Below, in pieces: positions 2,675-12,253 of a DNA stretch of 14,169 bases; the first letter of the stretch is position 1; every line of letters starts with the position of its first letter. A model generated the notes under the pieces. The model was not told the origin of the DNA, did not search any database, and saw only the letters and a program-made list of their open reading frames with translations. A program made the position numbers and the translations under genes. This DNA is from a bacterium (GTDB lineage: Bacteria; Babelota; Babeliae; Babelales; RVW-14). The DNA is taken from contig JBDRBF010000049.1 in the NCBI GenBank assembly GCA_043822925.1, positions 1 to 14,169 on the forward strand, read 5' to 3'.

Positions 2675-4060
2675 TTGAAGATGTGTAATAAGCGTTATTT
2701 TTTATTAGGTCTTGTGTTTTTTACTCAAAGTTTTATTGGTTTACTGGCAACAGATTTGCCAGTATTTTACCGGGCACCTTTTTTTCGTTCTATTCATGAT
2801 GCACCCAGTGATTGGAAAACACAGGCAACTATACGGCTTGGTACGGGCGATACGCGCCAAGGGTGGGGACTTGATGATCATCATGGTGCGTTATTTAGCA
2901 TATATGGTGCTACTGATGTTACACAATTAGGTTTTGGTCTTGAAGATCTTGCGACAAAGCCTATTACAAATAATTATTGGAAAAAAAATGGGACGTTTAA
3001 TCCTGATGCCCCGGTTGATCCATCTAACCCTTTGAATCTTAAGAATAAAGACGGTCAGGTAGCGTTTAGTGGTAAACTTAAAGTTGACGATATCGCTCTT
3101 ACGGTAAAACAAACGATATTTTCAGGTTTTTATATACAGGCGTATTTGCCTGTGCGTCGAATTAAAATAGATCAGGTAACTGCAACAAATTTGGGTGCGC
3201 CAACGATCGCTGGTGGGATAGTTATGGCTGATTTCTTGACGACAGCTGATGGATTGCCGGAAATTTTGAGAGAAAATGGGTATGCATCTTTTACGACGTT
3301 TAAAGAAAGTGTATTTAAAAAAACAGAAACCCCTGAATTTTTATTATCTGTTGGTTGGCAAGGTCAAGGGGACCAAGAATTTGGGATTGTCGATAAAGTA
3401 CGAGGCTTTATGCAAGCTGGCATAATTGTGCCAACGGGCGAGAAAAAGAATGAAGATTTATTGTTTGCTATACCTATTGGTTACAATAAATTTTGGGGCG
3501 TTAATTGCCAACTGGGCGCAGAAGTTGCGTTTTGGAAGTTTGTAGTTTTAGGTGCGAGTGCTGGAACGACGATGTTTTTCTCCGAAGTGCGCGATATACG
3601 TATGAAAACGAATTCTGCCCAAACCGGTTGGTTTATGCTTGGTAAGGGGATGTCAAAAGTCGATCAGGGTTCTATGTGGGATTTGACTGGTTATGTTAAA
3701 GCTGATCACGTTGTTGCAGATCTTTCATTTATTGCTGGTTATAGTTTTAACCGTCAAGAAGATACGCAATTGCATGTTAAAGATGATAAATTTTTGTCTA
3801 CGTATGTTGCCCAGCAGAGAGCATTGGTCCCACCGGTACTTGTTTCAAAAGATAGTATCGTTAATAGTGACAAGCGTTTACGTGGCTGGAATCAGCATGT
3901 ATTGCATCTTATGGCAGAGTATAGTGCTGGGCCGGACGCAAAATCATGGTTTTCTCCAATAGTTCGTTTTGAATATAGTTATCCAATTGCTGGTCGTAGG
4001 GCCTTTGCTACAGATATGCTTGCCGGTACGCTTGGGCTGCAGGTTCAGTGGGCTATATAG
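2675..4060 (+). CDS. Exported hypothetical protein, putative outer-membrane beta-barrel
   Basis: 461-aa ORF. Basic plus hydrophobic N-terminus resembles a signal peptide. Many alternating amphipathic G/aromatic-rich strands (IVRFEYSYPI, LGLQVQW), and the C-terminus ends in a beta-strand with a near-terminal Trp. SD-like AAGGGA at 2663-2668. Start is TTG 2675 or ATG 2681. Confidence 0.65.
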   Translation: MKMCNKRYFLLGLVFFTQSFIGLLATDLPVFYRAPFFRSIHDAPSDWKTQATIRLGTGDTRQGWGLDDHHGALFSIYGATDVTQLGFGLEDLATKPITNNYWKKNGTFNPDAPVDPSNPLNLKNKDGQVAFSGKLKVDDIALTVKQTIFSGFYIQAYLPVRRIKIDQVTATNLGAPTIAGGIVMADFLTTADGLPEILRENGYASFTTFKESVFKKTETPEFLLSVGWQGQGDQEFGIVDKVRGFMQAGIIVPTGEKKNEDLLFAIPIGYNKFWGVNCQLGAEVAFWKFVVLGASAGTTMFFSEVRDIRMKTNSAQTGWFMLGKGMSKVDQGSMWDLTGYVKADHVVADLSFIAGYSFNRQEDTQLHVKDDKFLSTYVAQQRALVPPVLVSKDSIVNSDKRLRGWNQHVLHLMAEYSAGPDAKSWFSPIVRFEYSYPIAGRRAFATDMLAGTLGLQVQWAI

Positions 4061-6304: not shown

Positions 6305-8134
6305 ATGGATATACGAAGTTTAACTGGTTTTGATATAAAGAATTTTAAGCATGAGCATATTCGGAATTTTTCGATTGTCGCTCATATAGATCACGGTAAG
6401 TCGACGCTTGCTGACCGTATGCTTGAGGTAAGCAAAACGATTTCTTCTCGTGAGCACCAAGCTCAATTTTTGGATAAGTTGCAAGTAGAGCAAGAACGTG
6501 GAATAACGGTAAAAGCTCAAACCGCGTCGTTGTTTTATGAATATAAAGGTACGGTATATTTACTTAATTTAATTGATACACCAGGTCATGTTGATTTTAA
6601 TTATGAAGTTTCACGTTCTTTGGCTGCTTGCCAGGGGGCGTTATTGTTGGTTGATGCGGTGCAGGGAGTGCAAGCTCAGACGCTTGCTAACTTTTATTTA
6701 GCCTACGATCTGGATCTAACAATTATTCCTGCTATTAACAAAATTGATATGCAAGCTGCAGATATTAATCGAGTCTCTGGTGAAATGCATAAGGCTTTTG
6801 ATATCGCGAAAGACGAGATCTTACATATATCAGCAAAAAATGGCATAGGCATAGATGATGTTTTTGCCGCAATCATAGAAAAAATTCCGGCCCCTACAGG
6901 TGACGAACAAAAACCAGTTAAAGCATTGTTGTTTGATTCTTGGTTCGACGAGTATCGCGGTGTTGTTTGTTTGATTGAAGTAATTGATAATCAAATCAAA
7001 AAAGGTGACTATATTACGGCAGCGTATAGCGGTCGTGAGTATGAAGTGCTTGATATTGGTCTTATGTACCCAGATATGTTTTCGACGGGCGCGCTTTATA
7101 CTGGGCAAGTTGGATATATAATTTGTGGTATGAAAACGGTTAAAGAAGCGCGAGTTGGTGATACGTTTTTTAGTATAAAAACGCCAATCGAGCCGCTTCC
7201 TGGTTTTAAACCTGCTAAATCAATGGTGTTCGCAGGGATTTATCCTGTTGAAGCAACAGAATTTGATGAAGTGCGCGATGCGATAGAAAAATTAACGCTT
7301 AATGATCCAAGTGTGCATGTTGAGAAAGAGAGTTCTACTGCGCTTGGTCTTGGGTTTAGGTGTGGGTTTTTAGGTTTGTTGCATATGGATGTGTTTAAGC
7401 AACGTTTAGAACAAGAGTATGATGCAAATATTATTGTTACGTCACCGACAGTATCGTACAAAGTAATTTATACTGATGGGCAAGAAGAAATTATTGATAA
7501 TCCATCGAAATTAGAAGATACGGTTAAAATAGAAGAAATTCATGAACCATTAATAAAAGCGACGATTGTGTTACCCAGAGAATATTTGGGAAGTATCTTG
7601 AATTTGTGTCAGGAGCGACGAGGTGAACAGCTTGACATGAGTTATTTGGATGAAAATAGAATAGTTGTGCATTATAAGATGCCGCTAAACGAAATTGTGA
7701 CTGACTTTTACGATAAACTAAAATCGTTAAGTTCCGGGTATGCGAGTTTTGATTATGAAAGTATGGGTTATGAGCCATCTGATTTAGTTAAAATGAATAT
7801 TTTGCTTAATGGTAAAGCAGTAGATGCTCTTTCGCTTATTGTGCATAGAGATAAAGCTTTTTCTATTGGTAGTCAGTTGACGAAAAAATTAAAGACCGTT
7901 ATTCCTCGCCAAATGTTTGAGGTTGCTATACAAGCGGCTATTGGGGCTAAAGTTATCGCCCGTGAAACAGTATCTGCTATGCGTAAAAACGTTATAGCAA
8001 AATGTTACGGTGGCGATATTACCAGAAAGCGTAAGCTGCTTGAGAAGCAGAAAAAAGGTAAGAAAAAGATGAAGCAGGTTGGTAATGTTGAAGTGCCACA
8101 AGAGGCCTTTTTAACGATTTTAAAGAACGAATAG
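6305..8134 (+). CDS. lepA: Elongation factor 4 (LepA/GUF1 translational GTPase)
   Basis: IRNFSIVAHIDHGKSTLADR (G1), ERGITVK (G2), DTPGHVDF (G3), NKID (G4), GFRCGFLGLLHM, and LepA C-terminal KCYGGDITRKRKLLEKQK. Confidence 0.98.
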   Translation: MDIRSLTGFDIKNFKHEHIRNFSIVAHIDHGKSTLADRMLEVSKTISSREHQAQFLDKLQVEQERGITVKAQTASLFYEYKGTVYLLNLIDTPGHVDFNYEVSRSLAACQGALLLVDAVQGVQAQTLANFYLAYDLDLTIIPAINKIDMQAADINRVSGEMHKAFDIAKDEILHISAKNGIGIDDVFAAIIEKIPAPTGDEQKPVKALLFDSWFDEYRGVVCLIEVIDNQIKKGDYITAAYSGREYEVLDIGLMYPDMFSTGALYTGQVGYIICGMKTVKEARVGDTFFSIKTPIEPLPGFKPAKSMVFAGIYPVEATEFDEVRDAIEKLTLNDPSVHVEKESSTALGLGFRCGFLGLLHMDVFKQRLEQEYDANIIVTSPTVSYKVIYTDGQEEIIDNPSKLEDTVKIEEIHEPLIKATIVLPREYLGSILNLCQERRGEQLDMSYLDENRIVVHYKMPLNEIVTDFYDKLKSLSSGYASFDYESMGYEPSDLVKMNILLNGKAVDALSLIVHRDKAFSIGSQLTKKLKTVIPRQMFEVAIQAAIGAKVIARETVSAMRKNVIAKCYGGDITRKRKLLEKQKKGKKKMKQVGNVEVPQEAFLTILKNE

Positions 8135-8154
8135 AAAAAAAAGGGAGCGTCACT

Positions 8155-8610
8155 ATGAGGAGAAGGAAGGGGTTTTACTCGATTTCTATTGTTGCGAAAA
8201 TGTTTGGCGTTCATCAGCAAACGATTCGTATGTATGAAAAAGAGGGTTTGTTTACTCCCAAGAGATCTGAGGGGAATACGCGCCTATTTTCAGAAGAAGA
8301 TGTCGAGCAACTTGAAGAAATTATTAATTTGACGCACAACATGGGTGTTAATTTAGCTGGCGTTGAAATTATCTTGAAGTTGCAGAAAAAAGTGAAGCGC
8401 ATGCAAACAGACATGAATAAGCTTTTTGATCAGATGAATGGCCAACTGGTCGAAGAAAGTGAAGACTATAAAAAAGATGCAAAAAAACAGGTTGAGCGTT
8501 TGGTCGAGATAAAGAAAGAAAATGTGGCTTTAACTGAGAAAAAAACAGAAGAAGAACATGAAAAAGCGGTAGTAGTAGATGACTGGGAAATTGATTATGA
8601 AGACAAATAA
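8155..8610 (+). CDS. hspR: MerR-family HTH regulator, HspR-like heat-shock repressor
   Basis: YSISIVAKMFGVHQQTIRMYEKEGL MerR HTH, PKRSEGNTRLFS wing, and LTHNMGVNLAGVEIIL (HspR-typical GVNLAG) followed by a coiled coil. SD GGGAG upstream. Adjacent to htpX. Confidence 0.8.
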   Translation: MRRRKGFYSISIVAKMFGVHQQTIRMYEKEGLFTPKRSEGNTRLFSEEDVEQLEEIINLTHNMGVNLAGVEIILKLQKKVKRMQTDMNKLFDQMNGQLVEESEDYKKDAKKQVERLVEIKKENVALTEKKTEEEHEKAVVVDDWEIDYEDK

Positions 8611-8645
8611 ATAGTTATATATACACAAAGTAGAGGACAAAATAT

Positions 8646-9512
8646 ATGTTCTTAAATCAAATAAAAACGGTGATCTTGCTTGCTGGTTTAAGTGGTTTGT
8701 TTTTTCTCATAGGCTTCTGGTTTGGCGGAAGTAACGGGTTAATTGTAGCGTTTGCTTTTTCTATAATCATGAACTTTTTAACGTATTTTTATTCAGACAA
8801 GTTAGTGCTCGCTATGTATGGTGCAAAAGAACTTGATCATGACAAATTTGCTTACGTATACGCAATGGTGCAGGATTTGTGCGATAACGCACAGTTGCCT
8901 ATGCCAAAATTGTGGTTTATAGATACGCCAATGGCCAATGCTTTTGCAACGGGAAGAAATCCAGCGCATGCATCAGTAGCAGTTACACAGGGTCTTCTTG
9001 AGGTTTTAGAAGAGCATGAATTGCGCGGCGTTTTGGCGCATGAGCTTGCGCATGTTAAAAATAGAGATATTTTGATTGCAACTATTGCTGCAACACTTGC
9101 TACAGCTATTGGATATCTTGCTCATATGGTTCAGTGGGCATTTATTTTTGGTGGCTATGGCAAAAGCGATGAGCGAAGTAATGGTGGAGGTATTGGTGCT
9201 TTGGTGATAGCAATTATTATGCCGATAGCTGCAATGCTCATACAGATGGCTATCTCTCGGTCGCGTGAATATTTGGCTGACGAATCTGGTGCGAATTATG
9301 CACATGATCCACTCGCTCTAGCGTCAGCGCTTGAGAAGTTACATAATACGGCAGATAAGCAGCATTTAGCTCCAGCATCATCAGCGCATGCTGCGACAGC
9401 GAGTTTATTTATAGTTTTTCCGTTTTCAGCCAAAGGGGCCTTGAGTCTTTTTTCAACGCATCCTCCGATGGAAAAAAGAATAGAGCGTTTAAGAAAAATG
9501 GCTGGGATTTAA
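8646..9512 (+). CDS. htpX: Membrane zinc metalloprotease HtpX (M48)
   Basis: Two N-terminal TM helices, NAFATGRNP, HELAH (HExxH), ISRSREYLAD and FSTHPP motifs. SD GAGG upstream. Confidence 0.96.
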   Translation: MFLNQIKTVILLAGLSGLFFLIGFWFGGSNGLIVAFAFSIIMNFLTYFYSDKLVLAMYGAKELDHDKFAYVYAMVQDLCDNAQLPMPKLWFIDTPMANAFATGRNPAHASVAVTQGLLEVLEEHELRGVLAHELAHVKNRDILIATIAATLATAIGYLAHMVQWAFIFGGYGKSDERSNGGGIGALVIAIIMPIAAMLIQMAISRSREYLADESGANYAHDPLALASALEKLHNTADKQHLAPASSAHAATASLFIVFPFSAKGALSLFSTHPPMEKRIERLRKMAGI

Positions 9513-9633
9513 TAGTAAATTACGGTATAAGTACGCGTTTTTTGAAATAAAATAATAACGGGAAAGATAGTGGAAACGAGTAAGTGGGCGAGCTATCGAT
9601 CGATTAAATTTGTAAAATTAACACTTATTCGTC

Positions 9634-9662
9634 TTGCTCATTGTTTAAAAATCTGATACATT
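9634..9662 (+). promoter_or_regulatory. Putative sigma70 promoter for tRNA-Leu/secD
   Basis: TTGCTC (9634-9639), 17-bp spacer, TACATT (9657-9662), with extended -10 TG at 9654-9655. Confidence 0.55.
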
Positions 9663-9668
9663 TCCTTT

Positions 9669-9724
9669 ATCTTAAATTTGCATCTTAAATTTGCATCTTA
9701 AATTTGTATCTTAAATTTGATCTT
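9669..9724. repeat. 13-bp tandem repeat, 4 copies plus a partial copy
   Basis: ATCTTAAATTTG(C/T) starting at 9669, 9682, 9695 and 9708 (last copy 12 bp), then partial ATCTT at 9720. Confidence 0.95.
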
Positions 9725-9732
9725 TGTTATTA

Positions 9733-9819
9733 GCCGAGATGGTGAAATTGGCAGACACACTGCTTTAAGGGGGCAGCGGGAGAAATCCCATAGGGGTTCA
9801 AGTCCCCTTCTCGGCACCA
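9733..9819 (+). tRNA. tRNA-Leu (anticodon AAG), CCA encoded
   Basis: Cloverleaf: acceptor GCCGAGA/TCTCGGC, D stem GTG/CAC with GG in the loop, anticodon stem CTGCT/GGCAG with loop TT-AAG-GG (anticodon 9767-9769), long variable arm, T arm AGGGG-TTCAAGT-CCCCT, discriminator A, then CCA. Confidence 0.95.
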
Positions 9820-9876
9820 AAACGTAATCAGGTAAGTGGTAGTTGAAGCTATATTGAAGTTTATAAGGATACATAC

Positions 9877-11520
9877 ATGAATGCTCAGTCACGTATTTTT
9901 AAATTCTTGTTTTCGCCAGTTATCTATTGGTTGGCTTTTTGTGCAATTGGTTCTTATTTTATGTTTACGGTTGATCGCAAAGTTTATCAAGAAGGCGTAC
10001 AGAAAGAAGCAGGCGTTCTTGGCCATGTAAAAAGTTTTTTTGCAGCTACTCGTTTAGAGCATGTCGGCAAGGGTATTGATCTTGCAGGTGGAACATATCT
10101 CGTTTTGGGCGTTGATTTAGAAAAAGCTATTGAAAACCGTTTAGTTGTAGAAAACAAAGCGCTTGATCAGTTGTTTGAAAGCAAGAAGCTTGCGATTTTG
10201 CCTAAAAAGAAAGAAATTAAAAAAACGGTTCTAGAACTGACATTTGAAGAAGAAGAAGCTGCAAAATCATGTTTTAATCTTATTCAAGATAATCGTACAG
10301 CCCTTTTAAAAGTTTCGCGTACTGGTGCTCTGGTTCAAGCATCTATAGCTCCAGAAGTAGAAGTAAGTATTCGTAAAGGGGCTGTTGATCAAGCTGTTAG
10401 TGTTTTGACGAATCGTTTGGCTAGTTATGATGTTGAAGGCATCATTGTTCAGCCTCATGGTGAACGGCAAATAGTTATTCAGCTTCCTGGTATTAACGAT
10501 CCAGATCGTATTAAAAGTGTTGTGACAAAAACAGCGCACTTAGAATTTAAGCTCGTAGAAGATACAGCTGCAACGCGTCAGCATTTGCTTGATAAATTTG
10601 ATGGCGAGCTTCCACCTGATAAAATGATTGTTTCTGGCGGTAAAGATGAAGGTGATCATTTTTATTTAGTCTCCGCTTATCCTGATTTGAGTGGCGAACA
10701 TATTGTTGAGGCTCAGGTTGCTTTTGATCAATTTAATAAACCTGAAGTAGATTTTAGGCTTGATAGTATTGGCGCTAAAGAATTTGGAGATTTAACTGCG
10801 AATAATATTGGTCGACGTCTTGCTATAATTATTGACGATGTTGTTATGTCTTCTCCTTCTATTAATAGTGAAATTCCTGGTGGAAGAGCGCAAATTACTG
10901 GTCACTTTACACAAAAAGATGCGCTTGATTTATCGATTGTTCTTAAATCAGGTTCATTGAAAGCACCATTGAAGTTTGAACAGGAAAGCCGTGTTGGCGC
11001 AACACTTGGGCAAGATTCTATTAACAAAGGCTTTATGGCTTGCGCTGTTGCAATTTTGTTATTGTGCTTGTTCAGCTTGTTGTATTACGGGCTTGCAGGA
11101 TTCTTTACGGTATTGGCTCTCTTTTATAACTTATTTTTGGTATTATTGTTCTTGTCTTACTTTAATGCAACGCTCACGTTGCCAGGTATAGCTGGTATTG
11201 TTTTAACTGTAGCAATGGCAATAGATGCATCGATTATTATTTATGAACGTATTCGTGAATATTTGTCTGAAGGCGAATCGTTTAGAGTAGCTGTAACTAA
11301 GGGATTTCAGGGCGCAACAGTTAATATATTAGATGCTAATATTACTGCTTTCTTAACGGGTCTTGTTTTGTTCCAATTCGGTGGACCTGGTGTAAAAGGC
11401 TTTGCAGTAACATTAATGGCTGGTATAATAGCAACAGTTCTTTCCGGTGTGTTCTTTTTGAAATCGATTATGATCTTCTCTCTTGATAATCTTGGTGTAA
11501 GATCACTTCTGAAAAAATAG
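9877..11520 (+). CDS. secD: Protein translocase subunit SecD
   Basis: GIDLAGG, QIVIQLPG, large periplasmic domain with RLAIIIDD, LKSGSLKAP, VGATLGQDSI, TLTLPGIAGIVL, IDAxxxIYERIRE, ILDANIT, GVKGFAVTL. SD AAGGA upstream. Confidence 0.96.
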   Translation: MNAQSRIFKFLFSPVIYWLAFCAIGSYFMFTVDRKVYQEGVQKEAGVLGHVKSFFAATRLEHVGKGIDLAGGTYLVLGVDLEKAIENRLVVENKALDQLFESKKLAILPKKKEIKKTVLELTFEEEEAAKSCFNLIQDNRTALLKVSRTGALVQASIAPEVEVSIRKGAVDQAVSVLTNRLASYDVEGIIVQPHGERQIVIQLPGINDPDRIKSVVTKTAHLEFKLVEDTAATRQHLLDKFDGELPPDKMIVSGGKDEGDHFYLVSAYPDLSGEHIVEAQVAFDQFNKPEVDFRLDSIGAKEFGDLTANNIGRRLAIIIDDVVMSSPSINSEIPGGRAQITGHFTQKDALDLSIVLKSGSLKAPLKFEQESRVGATLGQDSINKGFMACAVAILLLCLFSLLYYGLAGFFTVLALFYNLFLVLLFLSYFNATLTLPGIAGIVLTVAMAIDASIIIYERIREYLSEGESFRVAVTKGFQGATVNILDANITAFLTGLVLFQFGGPGVKGFAVTLMAGIIATVLSGVFFLKSIMIFSLDNLGVRSLLKK

Positions 11521-11531
11521 TTTATACGTTT

Positions 11532-11605
11532 GGCGGCGTAGCTCAGTTGGTTAGAGCGGCGGAATCATAATCCGTAGGTCCGGGGTTCGAATCCCTGCGC
11601 CGCTA
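11532..11605 (+). tRNA. tRNA-Met (CAT), probably elongator; CCA not encoded
   Basis: Acceptor GGCGGCG/CGCCGCT, D arm GCTC/GAGC, anticodon stem GCGGA/TCCGT with loop AT-CAT-AA (11566-11568), T arm CGGGG-TTCGAAT-CCCTG, discriminator A. Lacks initiator hallmarks. Ile2 (lysidine) identity is not formally excluded. Confidence 0.92.
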
Positions 11606-11644
11606 TTTTTCAGCCAAACAAAAGAAAAAAGTTAAAGGTTAGTA

Positions 11645-12253
11645 GTGTTACTTGTCGCTCTGTTTGTTCTTGCATATCTTATTGGCTCTATTCCAACCGG
11701 ATATCTTATCTGTCGTTACTGTTTTAATATCGATGTTACACAACATGGTTCTGGAAATATTGGCGCAACAAATGTTGCTCGTGTTTTGGGCAAGGGCATA
11801 AAGTATTTTGTTTTTATCTTTCTTATCGATGCAGCTAAAGCATATCTTTCGTTATACGCAGCAAATTATTTTTTCGTACATAATTTATTAATAAACGCAG
11901 CTCAGGTGCAAAATTATATTTTGCTTTTGGCTTGTGCTGTTTTATTGGGCAATGCTCATTCAATATTTCTTAAGTTTAAAGGTGGTAAAGGGGTTGCAAC
12001 AAGTCTTGGTATTATTGTATATCTTATTCCTGTATCGCTTGTACTTTTATTTTTGGCCAGTTGGCTTATTATTCTCGCGTTTACCCGGCGTGTATTTATG
12101 GCTTCGATTGGTGCAACGATTATTATGACTGGCATGTATGGTTATTTGTATTTTACTGGCAATAATCTTTTGTTTTATTTTCTGATTATTATTTGTTACT
12201 GGTTAATATTAAGACATAGAGCGAATATTAAGCTTTTTTTGCATAGCCATTAA
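11645..12253 (+). CDS. plsY: Glycerol-3-phosphate acyltransferase PlsY
   Basis: AYLIGSIPTG, GSGNIGATNVARVLG, DAAK, FKGGKGVAT and HRANI motifs. Multi-TM, GTG start. Confidence 0.95.
   Translation: MLLVALFVLAYLIGSIPTGYLICRYCFNIDVTQHGSGNIGATNVARVLGKGIKYFVFIFLIDAAKAYLSLYAANYFFVHNLLINAAQVQNYILLLACAVLLGNAHSIFLKFKGGKGVATSLGIIVYLIPVSLVLLFLASWLIILAFTRRVFMASIGATIIMTGMYGYLYFTGNNLLFYFLIIICYWLILRHRANIKLFLHSH

Follow-up and report, generated by a model that had tools for sequence, protein, structure and literature searches.

The 87-nt gene at 9733..9819 on the forward strand of the window (the whole stretch of DNA analysed here, 14,169 nt) is a genuine, intact and selected tRNA-Leu with adenosine at wobble position 34 (A34), which stands in for tRNA-Leu(GAG). 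In Dependentiae, the tRNA-Leu predicted to read CUY codons has G at the wobble position in some genomes and A in others, and the two states have replaced each other even within genera; neither TadA nor codon usage changes along with them. Taken as a single gene, the tRNA-Leu(AAG) of the window, by its sequence a working tRNA-Leu, is an ordinary annotation, and the tRNA kind itself is already known from lactic acid bacteria. What is new here is a phylum-wide, repeatedly flipping polymorphism with no correlate in TadA or codon usage, together with the tRNA set of genus g3.

Wobble inosine outside tRNA-Arg is textbook-eukaryotic and has been regarded as exceptional in bacteria. Here at least 27% of the species genomes of an uncultured phylum show the A34 trait, and G and A have flipped repeatedly. 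Dependentiae thus offer a natural series of matched AAG/GAG pairs for the question of whether TadA specificity must change before a new A34 tRNA arises, a question that also underlies the origin of eukaryotic ADAT.

Genome and gene neighbourhood

The window belongs to a Dependentiae/TM6 MAG (G000, hereafter the source genome) of 1.52 Mb in 86 contigs, with 37.3% GC and 92% completeness. The best relatives of its LepA (63-74% identity) come from MAGs whose label is candidate division TM6, Dependentiae or Babelota. LpxB, SSB, ArgRS, CrcB, LepA, a MerR regulator and an M48 protease are encoded ahead of tRNA-Leu(AAG), which is followed by SecD, tRNA-Met(CAT), PlsY and an ATP-dependent DNA ligase. 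The ligase gene of this small bacterial genome (12416-14167, running off the window) codes for three domains (Pfam DNA_ligase_A_N, _M and _C). Two window ORFs, 2675-4060 (461 aa) and 1-504 (167 aa), match no Pfam family at E <= 0.001; the 461-aa product starts with a hydrophobic, signal-like segment.

Structure of the gene for tRNA-Leu(AAG)

ARAGORN reports a tRNA-Leu(aag) in the window at 9733-9819 of the forward strand, where the sequence reads GCCGAGA-TG-GTG-AAATTGGCAGA-CAC-A-CTGCT-TTAAGGG-GGCAG-(variable arm)-GGGGTTCAAGTCCCC-T-TCTCGGC-A-CCA. This is a class II tRNA with a long variable arm. Direct reading gives the acceptor stem GCCGAGA/TCTCGGC and the 3' end ...TCTCGGC-A-CCA, with an encoded CCA behind the discriminator A73, a leucine identity element. 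The anticodon arm (9759..9775, forward strand) has the stem CTGCT/GGCAG, whose last pair, 31-39, is U.G, and the loop U32 U33 A34 A35 G36 G37 G38 (UUAAGGG), G37 and G38 following the anticodon. A34 itself is base 9767 of the forward strand, a position occupied by G in GAG orthologues. The anticodon AAG with G37 and the CTGCT/GGCAG stem had been proposed from the letters of the window alone in an earlier sequence-only reading; ARAGORN and the direct reading bear both out.

The Rfam tRNA model RF00005 matches the gene with 45.9 bits in a 501-base scan (gathering score 29). The gene is not reported in a scan of the whole window at the gathering threshold because of the speed filters, a stage at which class II tRNAs can drop out of Rfam scans. 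Together with the ARAGORN call and the terminal A-CCA, the RF00005 score confirms the earlier claim of an intact gene with encoded CCA. In an alignment of 19 AAG orthologues, 13 of the 26 predicted pairs are preserved through two-sided changes; RNAalifold also paired two loop positions of these orthologues as U.G, which is taken as an artefact. A check of base 9767 had been advised, and it is indeed A: a 379-nt contig from run X2, the groundwater metagenome of another study, spans 9421-9799 with 0 differences, base 9767 included. Among RNA data sets, none was listed for 8000-12000 of the window, and the RNA run X12, when compared with it, placed nothing on the tRNA.

The promoter candidate that the sequence-only reading assigned to the gene is not supported beyond chance. 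A consensus scan yields one weak site, at 9542-9571 with 9/12 matches, where 1.9 are expected from shuffled sequences. The upstream region also carries a 13-bp tandem repeat (9669-9724, consensus ATCTTAAATTTGC, 4.4 copies, 95% matches) that ends 8 bases 5' of the tRNA; in G017 (L082), the closest relative sharing this tRNA, no such repeat lies upstream. The repeat is perhaps a microsatellite of recent origin in the leader or promoter region of the tRNA.

tRNA set and codon usage of the source genome

ARAGORN finds 41 tRNA genes in the source genome, those for leucine having the anticodons TAG, CAG, AAG, CAA and TAA (two genes). It detects no tRNA-Leu(GAG) in this 92% complete MAG, and A34 stands only in tRNA-Leu(AAG) and in tRNA-Arg(ACG), the latter with the canonical loop CUACGAA. 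A genome-wide listing of ANN anticodons and a look for tRNA-Leu(GAG) had been proposed earlier. The arginine tRNAs reported by ARAGORN are Arg(ACG) and Arg(TCT) only; Arg(CCG) and Arg(CCT) were not found, and the crude ORFs contain 1163 CGG and 780 AGG codons. The two missing tRNAs may reflect the incompleteness of the MAG (92%) or a reduced decoding set.

CTT had been judged by eye to be the commonest CUN codon near the tRNA gene, and the counts agree: 141 CTT against 24 CTC, 16 CTA and 13 CTG in 12 window ORFs. Over 1098 crude ORFs of the source genome the shares of leucine codons are.29 for TTA,.17 for TTG,.28 for CTT,.11 for CTC,.09 for CTA and.07 for CTG. CTT makes up 51% of CUN genome-wide and 73% in the window. 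CTC amounts to 4494 codons in the crude ORFs (11% of Leu; CTC/(CTC+CTT) = 0.28) in a genome without a G34 reader.

Distribution of AAG and GAG in Dependentiae

The 261 Dependentiae species genomes were searched with an AAG pattern, GGYAGACRCRCNNNNTTAAGG, and with a GAG pattern that is the same with TTGAGG. The first matches 71/261 genomes and the second 143/261. A row-by-row comparison of the two tables found no genome among the 261 with both, and reversed-pattern controls gave 0 matches in both searches of these genomes. Neither pattern matches the other 47 genomes; all five that were sampled carry GAG with a variant D-arm, and the counts of 71 and 143 are therefore lower bounds. All Dependentiae genomes that were read carry one of the two anticodons and lack the other; of the 29 related genomes that were read completely, 20 have AAG. 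In this phylum AAG replaces GAG and never accompanies it.

The AAG pattern dominates several families, namely f7 (12/12), f16 (6/7), f19 (5/6), f4 (4/4), f8 (3/3) and f1 (23/34, plus the source genome). Matches are few in f21 (9/80) and f3 (1/41), and none was found in f12, f6, f11, f13, f15 and f2. Two genera are mixed: g12, with GAG in G011 and AAG in G022, G158 and G159, and g132, with GAG in G232 and G233 and AAG in G234. The tRNAs of L093 (AAG) and L094 (GAG), both from g12, differ only at position 34 and at one variable-loop base. In the anticodon stem, AAG genes have the same sequence as the GAG genes of their local relatives, for example ...GCACTGCTTTAAGG in f1 and ...ACGCAGCTTTAAGG in f21; the anticodon arm of the window recurs in most Dependentiae AAG tRNAs. 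From these sequences we infer several independent changes at position 34, in both directions.

Position 34 is A at 21 of the 30 orthologous loci (source and related genomes) and G at 9. The syntenic place downstream of lepA (lepA ... tRNA-Leu, secD, tRNA-Met) is occupied by AAG in L003 and by GAG in L011, both on named MAG contigs; a tRNA-Leu is present at 2 of 26 lepA-linked Dependentiae loci. The sequence-only reading held that relatives with GAG at this locus would speak against its A34. Such relatives exist (9/30 loci, and also the syntenic locus L011), but they reflect an A/G polymorphism and not an error in the source genome.

Codon usage was contrasted between 15 AAG and 17 GAG genomes, in small samples of 20-40 kb of crude ORFs each. 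CUC/CUY is 0.24 in AAG and 0.26 in GAG genomes (Mann-Whitney p 0.79). Between the same 15 and 17 genomes no leucine codon shift accompanies AAG (CUN share of Leu 0.54 vs 0.55), no single CUN codon differs (all p >= 0.5), and there is no difference in GC (mean 0.383 in AAG vs 0.386 in GAG, p 0.97). With no difference in CUC use between the two groups, the A34 tRNA serves CUC-containing genes as well as the G34 tRNA does, as one would expect of I34 and less so of A34.

Leucine tRNAs of genus g3

The genomes G002 (95% complete) and G019 (94% complete) of genus g3 have 35 and 33 Rfam tRNA matches, respectively. All matches of at least 82 nt in these two genomes are accounted for by four tRNA-Ser, one tRNA-Tyr and tRNA-Leu with the anticodons AAG, CAG, CAA and TAA. 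No tRNA-Leu(UAG) was found in G002, G019 or G152 by a DNA search with the Leu(UAG) gene of the source genome, which found only CAG, AAG and CAA. The same three genomes also miss tRNA-Lys(CTT), a gene that adjoins tRNA-Leu(TAG) in the other Dependentiae genomes whose locus was read. CUA nevertheless makes up 20.5% of CUN codons in G002 and 16.8% in G019 (40 kb samples). Since CAG cannot read CUA and UAG is missing, the AAG tRNA of g3, whose anticodon arm is identical to that of the window, would have to read CUA, fitting I.A pairing. This tRNA set, as assembled in MAGs, is the strongest in silico pointer to inosine.

In G151 (81% complete), the fourth genome of g3, a Lys(CTT)-Leu(TAG) pair lies on a 3.2 kb contig (L198 = G151:C51). 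The searched part of the flanking ORF on this contig was not found in the other three g3 genomes, and the flanks do not match the Lys-Leu(TAG) locus of the source genome either. The genes on either side of Lys(CTT)-Leu(TAG), compared with a view to a true deletion in g3, are not syntenic even in the nearest genus. The query with the Leu(UAG) gene of the source genome also detected no UAG gene in the GAG genomes G103 and G236, so single assemblies do lose the UAG locus.

A UAG pattern matches 240 of the 261 Dependentiae genomes. Loss of Leu(UAG) was considered as a general mark of AAG genomes and rejected: the pattern misses 8/71 AAG and 8/143 GAG genomes, and g3 alone is consistent. The misses in G028, G115, G229, G175 and G247 are D-loop variants only. 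A Leu(UAG)-like gene with an odd loop lies beside tRNA-Lys(CTT) at L376 1501-1584 (G247:C9), where ARAGORN reports 'tRNA-??? anticodon (tagg)'.

TadA of Dependentiae

The sole TadA of the source genome is encoded on the minus strand at G000:C41:66321-66749 (PF14437, 118.5 bits) and has 153 aa in the frame read. It features the zinc and catalytic motifs HAE and PCxxC (AHAE, EPCLMC), which are found in every aligned Dependentiae TadA. Its match to NF008113 reaches 114.8 bits over profile positions 10-154 of 165, under the NCBIfam curated cut-off of 150. The best solved relative is the Staphylococcus aureus TadA 2b3j (E 7e-37); the S. pyogenes (2nx8, E 1.8e-26) and E. coli (1z3a, E 1.6e-21) enzymes match as well. 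The alignment to 2b3j, 7cph and 1wwr is full length, including the C-terminal helix (...FFKNLR). The source genome has a second deaminase-fold protein (C32), whose match to the TadA profile stops after the first 108 positions and so covers its N-terminal two thirds. This protein may resemble guanine deaminases; 1wkq, 1tiy and 7dbf are among the weaker PDB matches of the TadA query.

TadA was found in 25 of 26 AAG and in 26 of 26 GAG Dependentiae genomes. The alignment comprises 26 AAG sequences (that of the source genome included) and 25 GAG sequences; G038, whose match is split by stops, was omitted, and G239 gave no match. No column of this alignment (26 vs 25) separates AAG from GAG genomes, the largest frequency gap being 0.42, at positions that track phylogeny. 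Within g12, the TadA of G011 (GAG) and those of G158 and G159 (AAG) are alike by eye, with no discriminating change.

At L126 (G027:C5:10557-10991, minus strand) the TadA frame extends to 276 aa and its C-terminal part ends with CxxC...CxxC, which we take to resemble a DksA/TraR-type zinc finger. Either the long frame reflects a fusion, or a stop was missed.

tRNA-Leu(AAG) beyond Dependentiae

When the AAG pattern was run against 185,579 species genomes, it matched at least 120 stretches, and 80 of the matches listed were read. ARAGORN recognizes a tRNA-Leu(AAG) in 73 of these 80 matches listed (54 of the first 60); among the 7 failures, 6 have an unpaired stem and 1 is cut by a contig end. 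The loops in 74 of the matches listed are UUAAGGA (36), UUAAGGG (34) and UUAAGGU (4). Taxa represented among the matches listed include Lactobacillales, many Clostridia and Christensenellales, Ca. Actinomarina, Acidimicrobiales, Opitutales, Puniceicoccales and other Verrucomicrobiota, Vampirovibrionales, Fermentibacteria, Nitrospirales, Patescibacteria, Hydrogenedentota and Caldiserica. The rarity that had been ascribed to bacterial tRNA-Leu(AAG) was thus overstated, in view of 71/261 Dependentiae species and of the many phyla behind the 73 of 80 matches listed.

Inosine or adenosine at position 34

The tRNA-Leu(AAG) of the window is probably read as IAG after deamination of A34 by TadA. The wobble base of the CUY-reading tRNA-Leu would have changed from G to A, and A34 would be deaminated to inosine by the single TadA of the genome, which must already edit tRNA-Arg(ACG). 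TadA is needed anyway because of that tRNA with its canonical loop. Once mature, tRNA-Leu(IAG) would decode CUU and CUC, and CUA less well, beside tRNA-Leu(UAG) and tRNA-Leu(CAG), and the Dependentiae TadA would accept the UAAG loop. According to PMC11472039, the S. pyogenes enzyme widened the editing consensus from YUACGAA to YUAMGRA; the loop UUAAGGG fits it at positions 32-37 and has G at position 38, where the consensus has A. Since E. coli TadA leaves tRNA-Leu(AAG) unedited in vitro (PMC11472039), having a TadA proves nothing by itself. Inosine is also not strictly needed in the source genome, which keeps Leu(UAG) and Leu(CAG).

An A34 that stays unmodified, in a tRNA reading mainly CUU (A.U) and perhaps CUC weakly while Leu(UAG) and Leu(CAG) cover the rest and TadA is specific for Arg(ACG), is possible though unlikely. 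It would suit the weight of CTT among CUN codons (51% genome-wide, 73% in the window), the retained Leu(UAG) and Leu(CAG) genes, with a UAG pattern in 240/261 genomes, and a TadA without AAG-linked change. The departure of G38 from the streptococcal editing motif and the rejection of tRNA-Leu(AAG) by E. coli TadA (PMC11472039) count on the same side, as do statements in two other sources, that A34, if unmodified, prefers U as its partner and pairs with C to a modest degree (PMC11066159) and that four-fold-box A34 tRNAs can be tolerated in E. coli (bioRxiv 10.64898/2026.05.15.725136). Such a tRNA is harder to reconcile with a use of CUC in AAG genomes that is not below that in GAG genomes, or with the g3 genomes, which have AAG and CAG without UAG and still use CUA. 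Moreover, according to PMC11472039 and PMC13249217, all bacterial tRNA-Leu(AAG) tested so far are fully I34. That A34 is left unmodified in most Dependentiae AAG genomes is likewise doubtful; if true, more than 70 species would carry a natural, selected four-fold-box tRNA with unmodified A34 despite an active TadA. The sequence-only reading had offered a TadA with expanded substrate range or an unmodified A34. The pair of options was correct and the evidence leans to inosine, but a specially expanded TadA is not supported, there being no AAG-linked column. Dependentiae TadA may instead be constitutively permissive for UAAG loops, in which case G34 -> A34 would lead to wider inosine decoding in a single neutral step.

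Two further explanations were considered. The genome is a MAG of 86 contigs and some relatives have G at the base, which would suit an A at 9767 that arose by mistake in sequencing or assembly, or a tRNA-Leu(GAG) copy in decay. Either is most improbable, given the identical contig in run X2, the occurrence of AAG in 71/261 species genomes with intact cloverleaves and compensatory changes, and a source genome that has no other CUY-reading tRNA. Dependentiae are symbionts or parasites of protists, and AAG tRNAs occur in many phyla; the gene might accordingly have come from another phylum or from a eukaryotic host, tRNA-Leu(IAG) being normal in eukaryotes. This origin is hardly credible for a tRNA that is orthologous to the phylum's own GAG gene, with L093 and L094 differing at position 34 and one variable-loop base, that occupies the same syntenic place (lepA ... 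tRNA-Leu, secD, tRNA-Met) in L003 (AAG) and L011 (GAG), and whose AAG lineages carry the anticodon-stem sequence of local GAG relatives.

Comparison with known systems

Mycoplasma reportedly has a tRNA-Thr(AGU) with unmodified A34, for which bioRxiv 10.64898/2026.05.15.725136 cites Andachi 1987 and Inagaki 1995. Like the tRNA-Leu(AAG) of the window, it is an ANN tRNA of a four-fold box in a small AT-rich genome. In Mollicutes with this tRNA, TadA-dependent decoding has been lost or altered, whereas the source genome keeps TadA and tRNA-Arg(ACG). The conversion of tRNA-Arg(ACG) to ICG presumably shares with tRNA-Leu(AAG) the same enzyme and the same wobble logic, I34 reading U, C and A. The Leu(AAG) loop differs from that of Arg(ACG) in having A instead of C at position 35 and GG instead of AA at positions 37-38, and a loop with A35 and G37-G38 is not accepted by E. 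coli TadA according to PMC11472039.

In S. pyogenes, tRNA-Leu(AAG) is fully I34, and its TadA, which has a C-terminal extension, edits it in vivo and in vitro; the first case, O. oeni, is credited there to Rafels-Ybern 2019 (PMC11472039). In PMC13249217, S. pneumoniae TadA is reported to edit tRNA-Leu(AAG) in vitro, and tRNA-Leu(IAG) to occur throughout Lactobacillales together with a shift in leucine codons; a short look at GtRNAdb in that paper adds Mycoplasma and Prochlorococcus. A count of 695 non-ACG ANN genes in GtRNAdb, most frequently Leu-AAG and Thr-AGT, is given in bioRxiv 10.64898/2026.05.15.725136. These published surveys cover GtRNAdb genomes and name Lactobacillales, Mycoplasma and Prochlorococcus (PMC13249217; bioRxiv 10.64898/2026.05.15.725136). 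The word 'Dependentiae' has 0 occurrences in these two texts, whose supplementary GtRNAdb genus lists may name further lineages. PMC3711424 has nothing on tRNA-Leu(AAG), and a full-text literature search for Dependentiae with tRNA anticodon returned nothing relevant by title or abstract.

The closest known system is the tRNA-Leu(AAG->IAG) of Lactobacillales (O. oeni, S. pyogenes, S. mutans, S. pneumoniae TadA). As there, the tRNA of the window is of class II, has A34 and G37 and replaces GAG, a single TadA of the homodimer type would also serve tRNA-Arg(ACG), and U-rich CUN codons are preferred. Editing is known in Lactobacillales, while in the phylum Dependentiae it is deduced from the genes. 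The Lactobacillales loci have an A38 loop, UUAAGGA, in contrast to UUAAGGG with a U31.G39 pair in Dependentiae. The leucine codon shift of Lactobacillales has no counterpart in Dependentiae AAG genomes, and the A34 state, which is fixed in Lactobacillales, is in Dependentiae an A/G polymorphism within families and genera.
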